A stretch of DNA of 7,995 nucleotides from a virus (lineage: Duplodnaviria > Heunggongvirae > Uroviricota > Caudoviricetes), in IMG/VR virus record IMGVR_UViG_2671181134_000012. The stretch is one strand, 5' to 3'. This document shows, in pieces, positions 1-7,717 of the stretch (positions within the stretch are counted from its first letter, which is position 1; each line of letters starts with the position of its first letter). The notes under the pieces were generated by a model that was not told the DNA's origin, did not search any database, and saw only the letters and a list, made by a program, of their open reading frames with translations. Position numbers and translations under genes: made by a program.

Positions 1-1239
1 ATGAGCAGGGCAATTCATAGACTTAGCGACACTCTTTTACGAAAATTAAGCGGATCACCAACCACAAAAAACACCTTTTTTAATGATGGTGGCAACCTTA
101 GCGTAAGGCATTCAACCAATGGCCTGTTAACCTGGTATTTCACTTACAGGGCCGGAACAGGCAGGAAGGTAGCCCCTGAACGTCTGAGGCTGGGAAATTA
201 TCCAGATTTGAGCCTGAAAGCAGCCAGGGAAAAAGCGTCGCAGTGTCGCGCCTGGCTTGCTGAGGGTAAAAATCCACGCCATGAGCTTAATCACACCGTA
301 CAGGAAGCGTTATCACCTGTTACGGTTAAGGAAGCGCTCACTTACTGGCTTGAATCGTACGCGAAGGAAAAGCGCACAGATTACGAATCTCTGAAAAGCC
401 GGATCAATACACACATAATCAGCCATATTGGTGCTATGCCGCTGGAAAAATGCGAGCTACGCCACTGGCTGACCTGTTTTGATCAGCTTGCTAAGCGTAA
501 TCCGGTATCAGCAGGATTTTTGTTACAGGTATGCAAGCAGGCGCTTAAGTACTGCCGCAAACGACGCTACGCAATTACCAACGTTCTAGATGATATGGTT
601 GTAGGTGATGTTGGGAAAAAAGCAGAAATAAGCGAGCGCATACTAACAAACAAGGAGCTTGGGGAATTACTCCGCGCCCTGGATGAAAAAATTTACCCAC
701 CGTACTACAGCGCCCTGATTCGCCTCCTGATTGTCTTCGGATGTCGTACCACTGAGCTAAGACGCTCTGAGGTCCAGGAATGGGATTTTAAAGAAATGCT
801 CTGGACCGTGCCGAAAGAACATAGCAAAACGAAGGTAGCAATATTCAGGCCAATACCGGAAGCGATCTTGCCGTTCGTAACGAAGCTGGTGGAGCAGAAC
901 AGGCACACGGGATTATTGCTCGGAGAACTGAAAGGGCAATCATCCGTATCAGAGTACGGAAGAACGGCACACAGACGTATTAATCAAGCCCCCTGGACGT
1001 TGCACGACATCCGGCACACGTTTACAACGATGCTGAACGATTTAGGCGTGGATCCTCATGTAGTGGAGCAGCTAACCGCGCACCAGTTGCCAGGAATGCA
1101 ACGAGTCTATAATCACTCCCGTTATCTTGATGCAAAACGTGACGCTCTTAATCTATGGGTTGAGCGTCTCGAGCTTCTCCAGAACAATGATGAAAAAATC
1201 GTTGTTATGACCCCGCGAATTTACTCCCAAAATTCTTGA
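1..1239 (+). CDS. int: Tyrosine site-specific integrase, P4-like (N-terminal arm-binding domain plus catalytic domain)
   Basis: 412-aa ORF starting at ATG 1. The N-terminal region (LSDTLLRKLSG...WYFTYR...GNYPDLSLKAAREKA) resembles the DUF4102-type arm-binding domain of P4-family integrases. The C-terminal region carries tyrosine-recombinase motifs (GCRTTELRRSE, HDIRHTF, and a candidate catalytic Tyr in RVYNHSRY). Family assignment is by recognition, not a search. Confidence 0.92.
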   Translation: MSRAIHRLSDTLLRKLSGSPTTKNTFFNDGGNLSVRHSTNGLLTWYFTYRAGTGRKVAPERLRLGNYPDLSLKAAREKASQCRAWLAEGKNPRHELNHTVQEALSPVTVKEALTYWLESYAKEKRTDYESLKSRINTHIISHIGAMPLEKCELRHWLTCFDQLAKRNPVSAGFLLQVCKQALKYCRKRRYAITNVLDDMVVGDVGKKAEISERILTNKELGELLRALDEKIYPPYYSALIRLLIVFGCRTTELRRSEVQEWDFKEMLWTVPKEHSKTKVAIFRPIPEAILPFVTKLVEQNRHTGLLLGELKGQSSVSEYGRTAHRRINQAPWTLHDIRHTFTTMLNDLGVDPHVVEQLTAHQLPGMQRVYNHSRYLDAKRDALNLWVERLELLQNNDEKIVVMTPRIYSQNS

Positions 1240-1648: not shown

Positions 1649-1858
1649 ATGCGCGAAATAAATGAAGATCGTGTAATCCGCGAAAAAGAATGCAGAGAGC
1701 TAACAGGCGTTTGCCGCACAACTCGTTACGAGATGGAAAAGCAGGGCCGCTTCCCCTCACGTATCAGTCTCGGCGGTCGTTCTGTTGGCTGGGTTAAGTC
1801 TGAGGTTATGGAATGGGTTAAAAGCAGAAATCGTATTAATTCAGGTAAGGCAGCGTAG
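1649..1858 (+). CDS. alpA: AlpA-family phage transcriptional regulator / excisionase-like protein
   Basis: 69-aa ORF with AGGA 6 nt upstream of ATG 1649. The sequence (CRELTGVCRTTRYEMEKQGRFPSRISLGGRSVGWVKSEVMEWVKSR) matches the recalled AlpA hallmark pattern (FP..I.LG.R.VGW...EV..W). The position directly after a P4-type int is the usual one. Confidence 0.88.
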   Translation: MREINEDRVIREKECRELTGVCRTTRYEMEKQGRFPSRISLGGRSVGWVKSEVMEWVKSRNRINSGKAA

Positions 1859-1884
1859 GGGGAACATATGACACATAAAACAAA

Positions 1885-1904
1885 GGCGACCTGTGGCGGT
1901 CGCC
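1885..1904. terminator. GC-rich hairpin (GGCGACC tgtggc GGTCGCC) between convergent alpA and the minus-strand RHH gene; candidate bidirectional terminator
   Basis: 7-bp perfect stem with 6-nt loop. On the minus strand it is followed by a T-rich tract (complement of AAAACAAA at 1877-1884); on the plus strand the downstream tract is A-rich. It therefore looks better as a terminator for leftward transcription. Confidence 0.45.
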
Positions 1905-1992
1905 AATGGGAAAACACTAAACATAAGCCAGAACATCATAGCGATTTGCTGTCTGGTGGGCAATGTGCTCAGTGTGCTGGCTTGCTGGTGGG

Positions 1993-2172
1993 CTATTCCT
2001 GCTCTTTGGCCTTGCGGCGCTGGCGGCGTTTGATTTCGCCTTTAACGGCAGTAACTATAAATTGCGCTTTGCTTTCACCTTCATCTAAATTTTTTTCTAA
2101 GTCTGCAACAACATCATGCGGGAATCTGGCATTTAACTGTTGCGACTTATTATTTGTTGAACCTGTTGCCAT
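1993..2172 (-). CDS. Ribbon-helix-helix (Arc/MetJ/CopG-like) DNA-binding protein, 59 aa
   Basis: Minus-strand ORF; preferred start is ATG at 2172 (complement) with AGAGGA 7 nt upstream. The track start at 2211 is GTG. The translation (QQLNARFPHDVVADLEKNLDEGESKAQFIVTAVKGEIKRR) aligns by eye to Arc repressor (FNLRWPREVLDLVRKVAEENGRSVNSEIYQRVMESFKK). Basic C-terminal tail. Confidence 0.65.
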   Translation of the reverse strand: MATGSTNNKSQQLNARFPHDVVADLEKNLDEGESKAQFIVTAVKGEIKRRQRRKAKEQE

Positions 2173-2192
2173 TACTGAATCCTCTCTAAGTT

Positions 2193-2285
2193 GGTGCGAT
2201 TCAGTATACACAAAAAAAATTCAGAGAAAAGGCTTGAGGTGCGATTCACTTGCTGATAGGTTAAAAACAGATGGTGCGATGCACC
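2193..2285. promoter_or_regulatory. Three copies of GGTGCGAT in the divergent intergenic region (2193-2203 GGTGCGATTCA, 2238-2248 GGTGCGATTCA, 2273-2285 palindrome GGTGC-GAT-GCACC); candidate operator array
   Basis: Repeats read directly. Copy 1 lies between a candidate minus-strand -10 (TATACT, complement of 2203-2208) and the RHH gene's ribosome-binding site, which is the arrangement expected for autoregulation. Confidence 0.45.
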
Positions 2286-2362
2286 AAATAACAACGCCCC
2301 GCAGTGGTGGCACACATGCAGGGCGTCTAACAACCAACGATAGCAACAGTATCGAGGTAGCT

Positions 2363-2566
2363 ATGTTAAATCATACCACACACCCGCAAGGGCGGGACTC
2401 GCACAACCTGAATAAATACATCTGGCGTTTTATCGCCCTGAGCACGGCACAACCGCGCGTGATTACCATCGAGGCCACCAGCGAACAGGAAACGCGTCAG
2501 CAATCTCCTGATGGCTGCGTGATGGTATTCGCCGCCCGTATTCGTCAGGGGGTGTTCCATGCCTGA
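2363..2566 (+). CDS. Hypothetical small protein (67 aa), first gene of a three-gene cassette
   Basis: ATG 2363 is preceded by GAGG with a 5-nt spacer. It is in frame with a long upstream open frame (1868-2566) that I consider non-coding. An alternative in-frame ATG at 2279 would give 95 aa. The stop TGA 2564-2566 overlaps the next start (ATGCCTGA). Confidence 0.5.
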   Translation: MLNHTTHPQGRDSHNLNKYIWRFIALSTAQPRVITIEATSEQETRQQSPDGCVMVFAARIRQGVFHA

Positions 2567-2885: not shown

Positions 2886-3185
2886 ATGAGAACTTATTTA
2901 TCTGGCTTGACTGCCAGCGGTTATGCACACCCCAAAATTATCCCCGGCGCTATTTATCTGGATAAGAACGGTAACAGAGTAACGGTAAAAGAACTGATGT
3001 TTGACCGTGTGTATTTTATCCGTGATGGCTATTCATTTCATAGTTCGCTGAACGTGGAGATCTTTATTAGCAGATTCAGGCGGGAAATCCCGCTTTCCAG
3101 AAATAACCATGTGTCATGTATCGATGTTGATAAAAAACTACAGGAACTGAAAAACATGATTGCCGCGTGGAGAGAGCAGAAATGA
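2886..3185 (+). CDS. Hypothetical protein (99 aa), third gene of the cassette, directly upstream of the primase gene
   Basis: ATG 2886 with GGGGA 9 nt upstream. The stop TGA 3183-3185 overlaps the primase ATG 3182 as ATGA, a classic coupling arrangement. No recognised motif. Confidence 0.6.
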   Translation: MRTYLSGLTASGYAHPKIIPGAIYLDKNGNRVTVKELMFDRVYFIRDGYSFHSSLNVEIFISRFRREIPLSRNNHVSCIDVDKKLQELKNMIAAWREQK

Positions 3186-4999
3186 AAAAAGCGCCAAATT
3201 TAAAACACCAGCCACGTGACAAAATGACGGAAGTCATCATTTTTGCGGGTAGTGATGCGTGGGCACATGCGAAGCAGTGGCAGGAACAGGACGGGCGACT
3301 GGCTGGCGATAACGTGCCACCTGTCTGGCTTGGAGAGCAACAACTTGCCGAACTGGACAACCTGCAAATCGTACCGGACGGACGCTATCGCGTGCGTCTC
3401 TATCAGGCGGGGTTATTGAGTCCGGGGCTTGTTAATACCATCGGGCAGAAACTGGCAGTGGCAGGTGTCAGGGATGCTGATTATTACCCTGAAGGAATGC
3501 ACAGCCAGAAACGGGAGAACTGGCGCGAATATCTGGAACGTGAACGGGCAGAGCAGGCGGAAAAGAAAAAGGTAGTTGAACTGCCTGTAAAGAAAAAAGA
3601 GCGGGTAAAAGACGATAACGCTTCATCACTGGCGCTTAACCAGATGGGAGCAAGTCAACGCGGCGAAGTTCTCCTGGCACATTATGGCGGTGAACTGGCG
3701 ATTCATGCTGACTCTGACACTGTTCACTATTACAACGGCGTTGTATGGGAGCCAGTACAGGATAAAGAATTACAGCGAGCTATGGCACAGATTTTCATTG
3801 ATGCGGAGATCAGCTATTCGCAGAACGCCATTAAATCGGCGGTCGATACCATGAAGTTAAGTTTGCCTGTAATGGGGAATACAGCCCGTAACCTGATTGG
3901 ATTCAGTAACGGTGTTTTTGATACCCGGACAGGCGATTTTCGGGAGCATAACAAAAACGACTGGTTGTTAATTGCCAGTGAATTACCTTTCAGCCCACCA
4001 GCAGAGGGGGAAACGCTGGCAACACATGCGCCGAATTTCTGGAAGTGGTTACGCCGTTCGGTGGCTGAGAATGACCGCAAGGCGGATCGCGTACTGGCTG
4101 CATTATTCATGGTGCTGGCGAACCGGTACGACTGGCAGTTATTCATTGAGGTAACAGGTCCAGGGGGAAGTGGTAAAAGCGTGATGGCGGAGATTTGCAC
4201 CATGCTGGCGGGTAAGGCCAACACGGTATCGGCAAGCATGAAGGCGCTGGAAGATGCCAGGGAACGCGCGTTAGTGGTTGGCTTTTCGCTGATTATCATG
4301 CCGGATATGACCCGTTACGCTGGTGATGGCGCAGGAATTAAGGCCATTACAGGCGGTGACAAGGTGGCAATCGACCCGAAGCATAAAGCCCCCTACTCAA
4401 CACGCATTCAGGCGGTAGTGTTGGCGGTGAACAATAACGCCATGTCATTCAGTGACCGCAGCGGGGGGATTTCACGTCGTCGGGTGATATTCAATTTTTC
4501 GGAGGTTGTACCGGAAAACGAACGCGACCCCATGCTGGCAGAAAAAATAGAAGGAGAGCTGGCGGTTGTGATTCGCCACCTGCTTACTCGTTTTTCTGAC
4601 CAGGACGAAGCTAAACGCCTGCTGTATGAGCAGCAGAAATCAGAAGAAGCTCTGGTGATAAAACGCGAGGGCGATTCGCTGGTGGACTTCTGCGGCTATC
4701 TCATGTCGTCGATAATGTGTGATGGTCTGTTAGTGGGTAATGCCGAAATTATTCCGTTCAGTCCGCGCAGGTATCTTTATCACGCCTATCTGGCATATAT
4801 GAGGGCACACGGATTCGGTAAACCTGTAACACTGACGCGCTTCGGTAAAGATATGCCGGGGGCAATGGCGGAATATGGCAGGGAGTATATGAAACGGAAA
4901 ACGAAGCACGGTTTGCGTTCAAATGTGACCCTGACAGAGGATTCAGAAGACTGGATGCCATCATGTGCATCGGTCACAAATGACGATGGAAAAAATTAA
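3182..4999 (+). CDS. Replication initiator: P4 alpha-like primase/helicase (D5_N-like region plus SF3 helicase NTPase domain)
   Basis: 605-aa ORF from ATG 3182 (the track's 3167 start is GTG). It carries Walker A (TGPGGSGKS), a hydrophobic stretch ending in Asp (LVVGFSLIIMPDM) as Walker B, and the SF3 motif C asparagines (LAVNNNAMSF). This architecture matches the P4-family phage/plasmid primase C-terminal domain. A TGTTCACC iteron array lies immediately downstream. The N-terminal ~150 aa are not assigned. Confidence 0.85.
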   Translation: MKKAPNLKHQPRDKMTEVIIFAGSDAWAHAKQWQEQDGRLAGDNVPPVWLGEQQLAELDNLQIVPDGRYRVRLYQAGLLSPGLVNTIGQKLAVAGVRDADYYPEGMHSQKRENWREYLERERAEQAEKKKVVELPVKKKERVKDDNASSLALNQMGASQRGEVLLAHYGGELAIHADSDTVHYYNGVVWEPVQDKELQRAMAQIFIDAEISYSQNAIKSAVDTMKLSLPVMGNTARNLIGFSNGVFDTRTGDFREHNKNDWLLIASELPFSPPAEGETLATHAPNFWKWLRRSVAENDRKADRVLAALFMVLANRYDWQLFIEVTGPGGSGKSVMAEICTMLAGKANTVSASMKALEDARERALVVGFSLIIMPDMTRYAGDGAGIKAITGGDKVAIDPKHKAPYSTRIQAVVLAVNNNAMSFSDRSGGISRRRVIFNFSEVVPENERDPMLAEKIEGELAVVIRHLLTRFSDQDEAKRLLYEQQKSEEALVIKREGDSLVDFCGYLMSSIMCDGLLVGNAEIIPFSPRRYLYHAYLAYMRAHGFGKPVTLTRFGKDMPGAMAEYGREYMKRKTKHGLRSNVTLTEDSEDWMPSCASVTNDDGKN

Positions 5000-5010
5000 A
5001 CTTATGGAAT

Positions 5011-5241
5011 AACTGTTCACCACTGTTCACCCTGCAATAAATGTCTTTTATATCAGTATATTATAGGGTGAACAGTTATTTATGAACTGTTCACCAAACT
5101 ATTCACTGTTCACCTTTTTGATTCTTTATTGAGCTTTAAGGGTGAACAGTGGTGAACAGTTGGTGAATAGTTTTTGTGAAACTATTCACCCCTTAACATC
5201 ATGAATAAAAAGGGAAAATTGCAAAAGGTGAACAGGTGAAG
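5011..5241. repeat. Iteron array / candidate replication origin: at least 8 perfect and several degenerate copies of TGTTCACC (GGTGAACA) in both orientations
   Basis: Perfect copies on + at 5013-5021, 5023-5031, 5087-5095 and 5106-5114; on - at 5067-5075, 5141-5149, 5151-5159 and 5227-5235. Degenerate copies at 5162-5172 and 5180-5190. The 22-mer AACTGTTCACCACTGTTCACCC (5011-5032) is the exact reverse complement of 5140-5161. There are two inverted pairs with 7-nt spacers (5067-5095 and 5162-5190) and an AT-rich stretch at 5033-5066. Confidence 0.8.
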
Positions 5242-5853: not shown

Positions 5854-6015
5854 ATGGCTATCACAGAACGCGAGGCAAGCATCATTAAAGCCATTGGCGA
5901 GGAAACAAGAGACACGATAGCGCCATTAATGGAAAAGATCGCAGAGCTTGAGAGACGAATAAACAAGCTGAGTGATGAAGTTGAAGGCCTGATCTCGTTA
6001 CTCGGTGAGCAATGA
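5854..6015 (+). CDS. Hypothetical small protein (53 aa), predicted helical / coiled-coil; absent from the supplied ORF track
   Basis: ATG 5854, 2 nt after the stop of the upstream ORF, with GAGGAA just upstream. The translation (MAITEREASIIKAIGEETRDTIAPLMEKIAELERRINKLSDEVEGLISLLGEQ) has heptad-like hydrophobic spacing. It is a short ORF, so coding status is uncertain. Confidence 0.4.
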   Translation: MAITEREASIIKAIGEETRDTIAPLMEKIAELERRINKLSDEVEGLISLLGEQ

Positions 6016-6070
6016 CAGGGGGGGAGTGTTCCGGCCGGAAAGTCGATCGCCCTGGACACCGCCCCCCGTC
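6016..6070. other. GC-rich structured element: G7 run (6018-6024), 12-bp palindrome TTCCGGCCGGAA (6029-6040), CGATCG (6044-6049), C6 run (6062-6067)
   Basis: Read directly. The G-run and C-run could pair to enclose the palindrome. It sits between the 53-aa ORF and terS; a cos/pac-type or regulatory role is possible but unproven. Confidence 0.4.
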
Positions 6071-6095
6071 TCATTCGTAGAAAATTTTGCTTTTC

Positions 6096-6121
6096 AAAAA
6101 AGTTACACGAAAAGTTACACC
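6096..6121 (+). repeat. Two direct copies of AAAAGTTACAC with 12-bp period in the terS leader
   Basis: AGTTACAC at 6101-6108 and 6113-6120, non-coding, 22 nt upstream of terS ATG 6143. Confidence 0.6.
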
Positions 6122-6142
6122 CCCTCAAAACGAGGTTTTTGC

Positions 6143-6631
6143 ATGGCATTAACGACCAAAAAAAAGCGGTTTGCTGATGCGTTATCAAGGGGCGCAAATC
6201 CCACGGAAGCCGCTATACATGCGGGATACAGCGAAAAGACCGCAAGGGTTAAAGGCTGGCAGCTATCCAATGATCCTGAGGTGAAAAAGTATCTTAAGGC
6301 TGTAACTTCTGATGTAACTTTTCAGGTTACAAAACCGAAAAAAGTTACAAAGAAAGTTACCGAAAAAGTTACACCGGAACGGGCATCAATTAACACCATT
6401 GAGATGATGGATAACGGCCTACCCGACCCCATCAAAGCAATGGGCAGGATACTGATTGACAACATGGACACAGATCCAAAACTGGCTTTAGATGCCGCGT
6501 TTAAGCTGGCCCAGTTCACCCACCGCAAGATCGGCAGCATTGGGAAAAAAGAGGTTAAAAAACTCAATGCCGCTAGTGTCTCCTCAAATCGGTTCCCCAT
6601 CCCTAAGCCACCAACAGGCTTAAGACACTGA
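6143..6631 (+). CDS. terS: Terminase small subunit (SF6 G1P-like, Terminase_2-type N-terminal HTH)
   Basis: ATG 6143 with GAGG 6 nt upstream. The N-terminus (KKKRFADALSRGANPTEAAIHAGYSEKTARVKGWQLSNDPEVKKYL) closely resembles the SF6-like TerS DNA-binding domain (KQERFIEEY...NATKAAIAAGYS...A). A Lys-rich repeat linker (KKVTKKVTEKVT) follows. Confidence 0.82.
   Translation: MALTTKKKRFADALSRGANPTEAAIHAGYSEKTARVKGWQLSNDPEVKKYLKAVTSDVTFQVTKPKKVTKKVTEKVTPERASINTIEMMDNGLPDPIKAMGRILIDNMDTDPKLALDAAFKLAQFTHRKIGSIGKKEVKKLNAASVSSNRFPIPKPPTGLRH
6300..6375. repeat. 12-bp periodic AGTTAC array inside terS: inverted copies GTAACT at 6302 and 6314, direct copies GGTTAC 6325 and AGTTAC at 6343, 6355 and 6367
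   Basis: Read directly. The period equals that of the upstream leader copies. It is encoded as an xxVT peptide repeat (AVTSDVTFQVTKPKKVTKKVTEKVTP). Confidence 0.6.
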
Positions 6632-6642
6632 GGTATCGAACT

Positions 6643-6804
6643 ATGAGCGAATACATCACAGACCCTATTGATGTACTCACGGAAATCATGAACGACAAGC
6701 AGCAGCCAACCGAAATACGGTTACAGGCTGCCGCTGTTCTGATGCCATATTTTCACGAAACCCTAACCCCATGTTACCAGGAGGAAGAAGATGATGATTT
6801 CTAA
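6643..6804 (+). CDS. Hypothetical small protein (53 aa) with acidic C-terminus (QEEEDDDF); absent from the supplied ORF track
   Basis: ATG 6643 with GAGG 9 nt upstream. Its 3' end overlaps the capsid gene start by 14 nt. Short ORF, uncertain. Confidence 0.4.
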   Translation: MSEYITDPIDVLTEIMNDKQQPTEIRLQAAAVLMPYFHETLTPCYQEEEDDDF

Positions 6805-7717
6805 AAACATGAAAGGCGTGTCGGCAGTTCGCGCCGCCAGCGTGCTTACATCGTGTAAATTCAGCCATGCAGACGCAATTGAAATGACGAAAAAAAATGA
6901 TCCGGCAGTATCGAAATTTCTTGAAAAATCCATCGTCAACAGAATGACTACGGATAACATGCCGTCGCTGGTGGCAGAGCCGATAGTAAGAGAGCTTGGC
7001 GAGTATATTTTTTCGCAGTCTGTACCAGGCAAGCTAATCAGCAGCGCGCTGAATCTTCCTTTTGGCGCAAAATTGCAGTCAATATCAGGCAAGGGTAGTA
7101 AATGGCTTAAAGAAGCCGAAGAAATCCCAATCAAAGAGGGAGAAGTAAACGAAAGCGCGCTAAAACTGTGCAAACTCGGCGCTATTGTGATGCTGAATAA
7201 CGAGCTAATCAAATTTAGCACCCCTGGTACCAATTCAGCGATCAGAGACTTAATCACATCGGAATCGGTGAAAGAAATAGATAAAAAATTTCTTTCCAGT
7301 GACCAGGAGGTGGCTGGCGTATCCCCTGAGGGTGTGCTTAATGGTGCTGATGAGGCCGAAAACTTCATAGAGCTTTTCAAAAAGCACATAGCGAACGGTA
7401 ACACGCTTTCCACGTCGTCGCTAATCTTGCCCGTAGAAAACGCCTTACAGCTTACTGATGCTGAGTTCTGGCAGATAGAGCTTTTGAGAATACCGGTAAT
7501 TGTGAGCGAACAGGCTGATCGCATGATGCTGATAGACGCTCAAAAGCTGATTATTAACGTTGAAGCCACGGTTATAACCCCAACTGATGAGGCGGTAATA
7601 AAAACCGAATCAGGGGCGGTTAGCCTTTTCCAGAATGACGCTACAGCGTTCAGGGCAATCACCTATTGCGGATGGCAAAAACTCGATAAGGCCGTCACCG
7701 TTCTGGCGAAAAGCTGA
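6791..7717 (+). CDS. Putative major capsid protein, HK97-fold (Phage_capsid-like), 308 aa
   Basis: AGGAGG (6779-6784) 6 nt upstream of ATG 6791. The central region (KLGAIVMLNNELIKFSTPG...IDKKFLSSDQEVAGVSPEGVLNGADEAENF) aligns by eye with the HK97 gp5 region (IAHWVQASRQVMDDAPML...GLALKEEGQLLNGDGTGDNLEG). Its size fits a capsid core without a delta domain. Not confirmed by any search. Confidence 0.6.
   Translation: MMISKNMKGVSAVRAASVLTSCKFSHADAIEMTKKNDPAVSKFLEKSIVNRMTTDNMPSLVAEPIVRELGEYIFSQSVPGKLISSALNLPFGAKLQSISGKGSKWLKEAEEIPIKEGEVNESALKLCKLGAIVMLNNELIKFSTPGTNSAIRDLITSESVKEIDKKFLSSDQEVAGVSPEGVLNGADEAENFIELFKKHIANGNTLSTSSLILPVENALQLTDAEFWQIELLRIPVIVSEQADRMMLIDAQKLIINVEATVITPTDEAVIKTESGAVSLFQNDATAFRAITYCGWQKLDKAVTVLAKS

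Follow-up and report, generated by a model that had tools for sequence, protein, structure and literature searches.

The stretch of DNA analyzed here (the window; 7,995 nucleotides of the IMG/VR virus record IMGVR_UViG_2671181134_000012, Caudoviricetes) is a Gram-negative phage-inducible chromosomal island (PICI) with int, alpA, a P4-type primase gene, ori, terS and a capsid gene. Between alpA and the replication genes it carries a gene for a 59-aa ribbon-helix-helix (RHH) protein, which is transcribed away from the replication genes, and a set of three short repeats in front of that gene. Our best explanation, which we regard as likely and which rests on sequence comparison, is that the RHH protein acts as a repressor and forms, together with its 13-bp operators, an exchangeable module of the PICI that may be bypassed by read-through transcription from alpA.

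The repeat GGTGCGAT is found exactly three times in the 7995 bp of the window, always on the plus strand (2193-2200, 2238-2245 and 2273-2280), as an initial annotation made from the sequence alone had stated; shuffled sequences contain 0.26 copies on average and none of 200 shuffles reached three. In the window the repeat can be extended to 11 nt (GGTGCGATKCA), and judged from relatives its unit comprises 13 bp of the form GGTG-N5-CAnn. The three units are named O1, O2 and O3 in the following. The additional claim that one copy is a perfect palindrome had to be corrected, since the arms of O3 on either side of GAT measure 5 bp (GGTGC/GCACC), or 6 bp if the flanking T/A are counted, and positions 6 and 8 are non-complementary. 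Elsewhere in the window, further copies occur at chance level (10 matches with two mismatches compared to 8.3 expected). In addition, the 3' part of O1 pairs with sequence before the RHH start in a perfect 9-bp inverted repeat, TACTGAATC/GATTCAGTA (2173-2181/2198-2206). Only two types (QQLNARF and L017, see below) possess such a type-specific repeat. The repeat of the window shares nucleotides with the Shine-Dalgarno sequence; it may represent a weak fourth half-site at the RHH start or have arisen by coincidence with the Shine-Dalgarno region.

The initial annotation had proposed to compare this region between related elements. The comparison covered 42 loci from one genome per species, complemented by L044, the prototype island EcCICFT073 (L046) and five more loci (L numbers are our locus handles). 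The positions of the three sites are maintained throughout 48 related loci, which represent about 20 genera. Among the 44 loci tabulated, the distance between O1 and the RHH start codon is always 20 nt, with the conserved CAGTATAC forming the end of O1, while O2 lies about 65 nt from the start and in nearly all cases directly follows a TTGA, the loci L019, L021 and L040 being off by one nt. O3 is always located downstream of O2 at an offset of 89-103, i.e. with a shift of about 14 bp, and can have either orientation, its core always matching that of O1 and O2. The arms GGTG/CA are constant, and the central 5 bp match residues 10-17 of the RHH protein one-to-one. Altogether, 11 types of the predicted beta strand pair with 11 types of the core, without any mismatch among the 48 loci (Table 1). 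The cores of the closest pairs of types differ in a single base: in one such pair the replacement of N14 by G goes along with the change from CGATT to CGGTT, and in another the replacement of M12 by L, with T13 to F alongside, goes along with TATTT to TGTTT. From Escherichia to Xenorhabdus, loci of the QQLNARF group do not differ in their sites, while 18-26% of the nucleotides in the first 53 codons of the gene have changed, mostly synonymously. E. coli alone harbors at least five specificity types. Collectively, this covariation and the cassette swap described below strongly support the earlier proposal that the operator array is read by the RHH protein.

Table 1. Pairing of RHH residues 10-17 with the central 5 bp of the operators.
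Residues 10-17	Core	Loci
SQQLNARF	CGATT	window and 16 others
SQQIGARF	CGGTT	L051
SQQIVSRV	GCATT	L019, L020, L040
SLQ(L/V)SVRL	GTGTT	L034, L042
SQMTT(V/I)R(I/V)	TAT(T/G)T	17 loci
SQLFTVRV	TGTTT	L027
SQS(V/I)TVRV, SQSLTARI	TAAGN	L041, L043, L044
SRQKTARV	GGAGT	L017
SQKMQARV	GAGCA	L016
SQK(I/L)QARA	TG-GAATC-CA	Xenorhabdus L039, E. coli L047-L050
SQALKARV	GGCCA	EcCICFT073

The exchange of the module between otherwise matching islands is seen in L044, which is the same island as the window at the same insertion site. Both are 99-100% identical at 1650-2019 and from 2366 onward, a part which includes a nucleotide-identical alpA gene, the last RHH codons and a near-identical gene for the host cell division inhibitor-like (Icd-like) protein, whereas the identity drops to roughly 50-60% (by eye from the alignment) inside 2020-2365. 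With this swap the protein type becomes SQSLTARI and the sites become TAAGN together, the primase being unchanged, and any evidence of a protein within the swapped stretch is confined to one coding sequence, the N-terminal part of the RHH gene. Conversely, loci sharing the CGATT core have AlpA proteins that are 28-49% identical or undetectable, an Icd-like gene that is present or absent, and different primase families; L001, for example, encodes a DUF927 primase and has the same sites. A reverse search, in which IMG/VR was queried with two CGATT-type sites, retrieved 43 contigs, 40 of which have an adjacent RHH gene, and all 37 intact copies encode SQQLNARF, with AlpA, Icd-like protein and primase ranging from undetectable to 99% identity. 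In the remaining three contigs the stretch ends where the gene is expected. The cassette swap and the variable neighbors thus exclude AlpA, the Icd-like protein, the primase and host factors as readers of the core. Three of the IMG/VR loci (L061, L080 and L092) have kept CGATT-type sites with an RHH frame disrupted in its N-terminal part, and may be natural repressor-defective islands.

The 59-aa Arc-like RHH protein claimed by the initial annotation is encoded by a real gene, as judged from its fold, its family model and its start signals. RefSeq annotates the product as YlcI/YnfO family, and it passes the NCBIfam model NF041551 with 63.3 bits at a cutoff of 30 (residues 9-50). A structure model built from a shallow alignment was poor; the use of a diverse alignment raised the predicted local distance difference test score (pLDDT) to 91.7, with an extended N-terminus and helices at residues 19-27 and 35-58. 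This model matches the solved RHH structures of Rv0298, AmrZ, ORF56, omega (two entries), HicB, SvtR and NikR. In the protein, the predicted beta strand at residues 10-17 (SQQLNARF) is followed by helix A (19-27), the N-cap GES (32-34) and helix B (35-58) with a basic tail, which is the strand-helix-helix arrangement of about 45 residues characteristic of the MetJ/Arc/CopG superfamily. G32-E33-S34 (GES/GET), which caps helix B, hardly varies in the family and R16 is invariant, while residues 10-17 are the part differing between the types, and their covariation with the site core is in line with the base-reading strand of RHH proteins. DSSP assigned no sheet in the monomer model; at the monomer level, the model supports the RHH fold. 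Close relatives occur across the Enterobacterales, several clusters being found on at least 1000 contigs each; the family is small, with only 90 cluster representatives among 1.84 billion proteins. Queried by tblastn with the RHH protein, a set of 50,697 phage records gave no match, and the Icd-like protein had one match only in these records, a 16.5-kb 'induced prophage'. Long forms of about 101-103 aa also exist (L044 9396-9701 on the minus strand, P0079, P0088, P0124, P0126), in which a helical insert of about 43 residues is placed between RRQ and the basic tail; the insert may be an oligomerization domain like that of Mnt. Moreover, in EcCICFT073 an extra basic 57-aa open reading frame (ORF) is found directly downstream of the RHH gene on the same strand (L046 10243-10416, minus strand), which might encode a partner protein and which the window does not contain.

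The three operators are indeed located in the region shared by the two divergent transcription units, as initially described, but this region is not simply intergenic. A stop-free plus-strand frame (1868-2566) runs antisense through the RHH gene and across the whole 190-nt 'intergenic' region, with the start codon of the Icd-like gene (ATG 2363) in frame. The plus frame is open over 186 nt after the RHH start in 38 of 47 distinct loci (shuffles: mean 2.6, maximum 7), in-frame stops in the relatives amount to 63 compared to 277 and 203 in the other two frames, and the median open span is 766 nt on the plus versus 291 nt on the minus strand. In the other nine loci stops occur in every plus frame. 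The variability of this frame shows no codon periodicity and its peptide over the RHH/operator stretch is Cys-rich and junk-like; hence, only stop codons seem to be avoided. The N-terminus of the long ORF carries a Pfam Bro-N domain in L051 (ORF at 3598-5085, minus strand) and a real-looking domain in EcCICFT073 (ORF at L046 9767-11053).

Both promoters of the region are putative and were assigned from conservation. The rightward one is based on the invariant TTGA and on TAnnnT at a fixed distance in the relatives, while the leftward -10, the only promoter-like element there, belongs with CAGTATAC to those sequences of the region that vary least between the specificity types. O1 and the 3' half of this -10 overlap upstream of the RHH start codon, which largely agrees with the initial placement of the first copy between the minus-strand -10 and the start. 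In the rightward direction, O2 occupies the -35 and the spacer of the putative promoter, and O3 follows at about +5 to +17; together with the position of O1, this arrangement fits repression combined with autoregulation. Transcription is predicted to start near 2269 on the plus and near 2196 on the minus strand. The leader of the putative rightward transcript contains two conserved hairpins, neither of which has a match in Rfam. In the first one, which was named by hand before the pairs were counted, 10 of 12 pairs show compensatory changes and none of 500 shuffles reached the observed score; RNAalifold found no leader structure because of the alignment register. The stem of the second one reads GTTA/TAAC, GATA/TATC, GTAA/TTAC or ATTA/TAAT in relatives. 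The order of a hairpin and a CUCUAAC-like stretch only loosely recalls boxB-boxA.

The features of the region and of the remaining island are compiled in Table 2.

Table 2. Features of the window. Minus-strand promoter and start signals are given in the direction of transcription.
Feature	Position	Strand	Remarks
Tyrosine integrase	1-1239		
alpA	1649-1858	+	Pfam PF05930, E = 7.9e-18; convergent with RHH gene, co-directional with rightward operon
Long stop-free frame	1868-2566	+	232 codons; starts 10 nt after alpA stop, ends as Icd-like
Intrinsic terminator of RHH transcript	1904-1885	-	hairpin between convergent alpA and RHH genes
59-aa RHH gene	2172-1993	-	NCBIfam YlcI/YnfO family
Exchangeable specificity cassette	2020-2365		RHH codons 1-51, O1-O3, both putative promoters, leader hairpins
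Shine-Dalgarno sequence GAGAGGA	2186-2180	-	7 nt before RHH ATG; read from sequence
O1	2193-2205	+	GGTGCGATTCAGT; overlaps leftward -10 and predicted leftward start site
Putative leftward RHH -10 TATACT	2208-2203	-	no recognizable -35
Putative rightward promoter	2234-2262	+	-35 TTGAGG (2234-2239), 17-nt spacer, -10 TAGGTT (2257-2262), A-rich tract upstream
O2	2238-2250	+	GGTGCGATTCACT; covers end of rightward -35 and most of spacer, -31 to -19
O3	2273-2285	+	GGTGCGATGCACC; about +5 to +17 of rightward transcript; most symmetric copy
Leader hairpin 1	2294-2326	+	about 12 bp; then conserved TCTAAC (2326-2331)
Leader hairpin 2	2338-2354	+	CGATA-N7-TATCG; abuts or encloses Icd-like Shine-Dalgarno sequence
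Icd-like gene	2363-2566	+	NCBIfam NF033153, PHROG 6196, RefSeq annotation
Two small genes			between Icd-like and primase-helicase genes; one is DUF4222
D5/P4-type primase-helicase	3167-4999		
Presumed origin	5007-5236	both orientations	at least 11 copies of ACTGTTCACC/GGTGAACAGT right after primase gene
terS-like gene	6005-6631		
Capsid-family gene	6791-7717		

In the mechanism we propose, an RHH dimer would place a two-stranded beta sheet formed by residues 10-17 into the major groove and read the central 5 bp of each site, with residues 12, 14 and 16 expected to point towards them. In the quiescent island, the RHH protein would be made from its own promoter and would shut the internal rightward promoter via O2 and O3, which drives the Icd-like gene, the DUF4222 gene and the primase-helicase gene, while binding to O1 on its own -10 would limit its own synthesis. 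The N-terminal part of the protein and the sites would represent a swappable specificity unit similar to an immunity region, with at least 11 types. For EcCICFT073 it is established that the alpA promoter is switched on by the helper phage and that AlpA stimulates its own expression and that of the downstream genes (PMC6092414). The T-run of the terminator at 1885-1904 is on the minus strand only, hence it should stop RHH transcripts and let alpA transcripts pass. After the helper phage has switched on the alpA promoter, transcription would pass this one-way terminator, and translation of the read-through transcript across the cassette would protect it from Rho. Read-through would run into the transcription of the RHH gene and continue into the replication genes, such that repression would at first be bypassed and then extinguished. 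The initial annotation had suggested an autoregulated repressor that might be the master switch of the element. The placement of the operators fits the former, whereas the RHH protein is probably half of the switch and not the whole, because AlpA is a proven activator in these islands (PMC6092414).

Several observations weigh against this explanation. Both promoters are weak by consensus, the leftward one being devoid of a -35 and the rightward -10 matching in 3 of 6 positions, and a consensus promoter scan called neither of them. The site spacings of 45 and 35 bp in the window differ from the adjacent half-sites typical of Arc/CopG. The window protein has no match to any Pfam family; among 37 relatives, CB_ParB_C was matched by 10 and PSK_trans_fac by 8 with E values of about 0.01, below threshold, and profile searches against the sequences of the PDB gave best E values of 0.93 and 0.23 (3no7). 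We take CB_ParB_C, PSK_trans_fac and 3no7 to be RHH proteins. Furthermore, the third-position excess in the RHH gene also fits the antisense frame; the wobble positions of both strands coincide, so that this excess does not by itself tell the coding strand. AlpA alone induces EcCICFT073 (PMC6092414), therefore the RHH protein cannot be an absolute block. Finally, two islands of the same type occur together in one E. coli genome (L049 and L050), hence a mutual exclusion of same-type islands is unsupported. These two islands both have fragmented integrases, and the SQKLQARA-type modules of L047-L050 are situated next to or inside prophage terminase (GpA_ATPase) genes, similar to the helper-embedded PICIs of PMC10111431. 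Four genomes contain two or three islands that differ in their RHH/operator types (L005/L028, L007/L032, L015/L035 and L036/L039/L041, the three types of the last set being those of Xenorhabdus mauleonii), which fits immunity groups, is not significant alone and is contradicted by L049/L050.

It might also be possible, though we consider it unlikely, that the RHH protein binds the three sites mainly as a roadblock or termination signal for alpA read-through, equivalent to the CI RNA of P4, with TTGA and TAnnnT being no functional promoter. The weak rightward -10, which the consensus scan left uncalled, would agree with this, as would the position of all three sites in the path of plus-strand transcription within the stop-free frame, and PMC10111431 describes P4 immunity as acting by premature termination at the same position. 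On the other hand, TTGA before O2 and TAnnnT 17 nt further on are conserved across the types while the peptide is not, and a mere roadblock would not require a site such as O1 on a conserved leftward -10. Moreover, small RHH dimers are poor roadblocks.

Much less probable is a function of the protein as antitoxin, which would neutralize the Icd-like protein or an unseen toxin by contact. The initial annotation had already considered a toxin-antitoxin pair unlikely for want of an adjacent partner gene, and this view is confirmed for the window: the RHH gene is monocistronic with its own terminator, and the 134 nt between its stop (1993) and the alpA stop (1858) contain the terminator and no plausible ORF. 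As a general feature this terminator is not retained, since a strict scan found a convincing hairpin with T-run after the RHH gene in only about one quarter of the loci. In addition, loci that keep the same RHH gene and sites can have another first rightward gene or none, and the short form of the protein is without a C-terminal toxin-binding domain beyond the basic tail.

That the repeats are bound by AlpA or by the first product of the rightward operon in a Cro-like manner, with the small ORF being unrelated, appears barely conceivable. AlpA activates the downstream genes in EcCICFT073 (PMC6092414), AlpA of P. aeruginosa binds a promoter element (PMC9371919), and PHROG labels the Icd-like family 'transcriptional repressor'. 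However, in L044 different site cores are found next to the identical alpA and the near-identical Icd-like gene, the CGATT loci have AlpA proteins that are 28-99% identical or undetectable and an Icd-like gene that is present or absent, and among the coding sequences with protein evidence the RHH N-terminus alone changes with the sites.

We attach just as little credence to the small ORF being a shadow of the plus-strand ORF 1868-2566 with the repeats as coding repeats. The plus frame is stop-free in most relatives, annotation pipelines call it as a gene, a Bro-N domain occurs in L051, and the third codon positions of both frames coincide, all of which would suit such a shadow. Against it, the minus-strand product folds at high pLDDT and matches solved RHH structures as well as an NCBIfam model, whereas the plus peptide is Cys-rich, junk-like and without codon periodicity of variation, and in 9 of 47 loci every plus frame is interrupted by stops.

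The idea that the repeats are origin iterons bound by the primase-helicase can practically be dismissed: the operon encodes a P4-type primase and P4 alpha binds repeated octamers, yet the window has a separate ACTGTTCACC array of at least 11 copies at 5007-5236, the usual position of a PICI origin, L001 combines the same sites with a DUF927 primase, and the cassette swap leaves the primase unchanged. This array, with its strong and long dyad symmetry and a DNA fold z of -8, is presumably the replication origin. Its iterons contain the octamer TGTTCACC, which we take to be the P4 type I iteron. PICI origins are located just after the primase gene (PMC6092414).

The remaining gene order of the window is that of PICIs, with int, alpA, primase, a downstream ori and packaging genes in one direction on an island of about 8-15 kb, in which the Icd-like gene leads the rightward operon and is nested in frame within the long ORF. 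A near-identical island resides between cspD/yljB and clpS in E. coli NCTC9112 and an O157:H7 strain, an insertion site shared by the islands of L001 and L044. The prototype EcCICFT073 has the same gene order, including the RHH module. Scanning the window against Rfam with E up to 1 revealed no C4/isrK and only two chance microRNA-like matches (5067-5190), both of which correspond to the ori dyad.

Among known systems, the immI region of phage P22 with Arc and Mnt is an obvious reference, in which a small divergent repressor binds an operator between -35 and -10 and regulates itself. The window resembles it in a small candidate repressor gene divergent from the operon and in sites on putative promoter elements, and the 43-aa helical insert of the long forms recalls the C-terminal coiled coil of Mnt. 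However, hhalign aligned QQLNARFPHDV to the Arc strand PQFNLRWPREV at low probability and gave no signal with Mnt, i.e. there is no significant profile match (probability 24% and 7%); the window has three separate 13-bp sites in place of the one 21-bp or 17-bp operator of P22, and its element is a satellite and not a phage, with the RHH gene antisense inside another frame. Omega of pSM19035 is an RHH protein binding 7-bp heptads in either orientation in contiguous arrays, whereas the units of the window are isolated and tied to promoter elements. In the Gram-positive PICIs or SaPIs (Staphylococcus aureus pathogenicity islands), the genes of the master repressors Stl/Rpr lie between int and the replication genes and are oriented away from the operon for excision and replication (PMC6092414). 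The RHH gene shares this position between int and the replication genes, but it has no homology to Stl/Rpr, an anti-repressor is not known here, and Gram-negative PICIs are induced via AlpA. Stl proteins are larger helix-turn-helix proteins inactivated by helper-phage proteins.

The closest parallel in organization is phage P4. In PMC10111431, P4 eta is described as translationally coupled to the alpA homolog and as containing the constitutive early promoter, CI/seqA and the nested in-frame Kil, and its translation is reported to prevent termination in the immunity region (citing Forti 1999). The window has the same order of an alpA/vis homolog, a long ORF with a putative internal promoter (PLE in P4), a candidate immunity determinant, a nested, presumably cell-harming gene, replication genes and a P4-type primase. 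As in P4, a long ORF follows right after alpA with a putative internal promoter and an in-frame nested C-terminal gene, and as translation of eta blocks termination, the frame of the window is kept stop-free. In contrast to P4, no CI/seqA-type RNA is found in the window (Rfam to E 1), its place being taken by a protein gene with DNA operators, which lies on the opposite strand; the RHH protein has no similarity in the phage collection, which is assumed to include P4.

The window protein is a member of the YlcI/YnfO family (NF041551, PHROG 949), which owes its name to ORFs in the E. coli K-12 prophages DLP12 and Qin and is listed in satellites only as 'prophage-associated protein' in a 2026 survey (PMC13612085). 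Its fold, operators and specificity types are worked out in the present analysis. The founding study on Gram-negative PICIs in 2018 tested AlpA as repressor, identified it as activator and found no repressor (PMC6092414), in a preprint on capsid-forming PICIs the word repressor is absent, and a 2023 survey describes the genes as unidirectional and the zone as one of Bro-network genes with immunity RNAs (PMC10111431). In the RefSeq entry of CFT073 the RHH and Icd-like genes bear the late-numbered locus tags C_RS30120 and C_RS30125, which suggests that they were added after the original annotation. Our literature search, incomplete in its coverage, revealed no paper giving the RHH module or protein a function. 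A RHH repressor with its operators is a known kind of system, while the arrangement and the proposed biological role are new, and no better candidate than this module has so far emerged for the repressor sought in the 2018 founding study.

Tentatively, and somewhat short of a probable conclusion, the RHH cassette might be the maintenance repressor of Gram-negative PICIs including EcCICFT073 and a protein counterpart of the P4 RNA immunity within a read-through, eta-like frame, with the types being immunity groups and Table 1 a recognition code for RHH proteins. A concrete repressor candidate is thereby present in the prototype island EcCICFT073, and the eleven matched pairs of protein and site provide unusually clean material for studies on RHH specificity and for orthogonal repressor-operator pairs. 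A repressor and operators inside a frame that is stop-free and not conserved as a peptide would link protein-based and P4 RNA-based satellite immunity. If this holds true, the relation between beta strand and core could be used as a recognition code for RHH proteins, and the immunity groups would determine whether satellites can share a cell or repress each other there.

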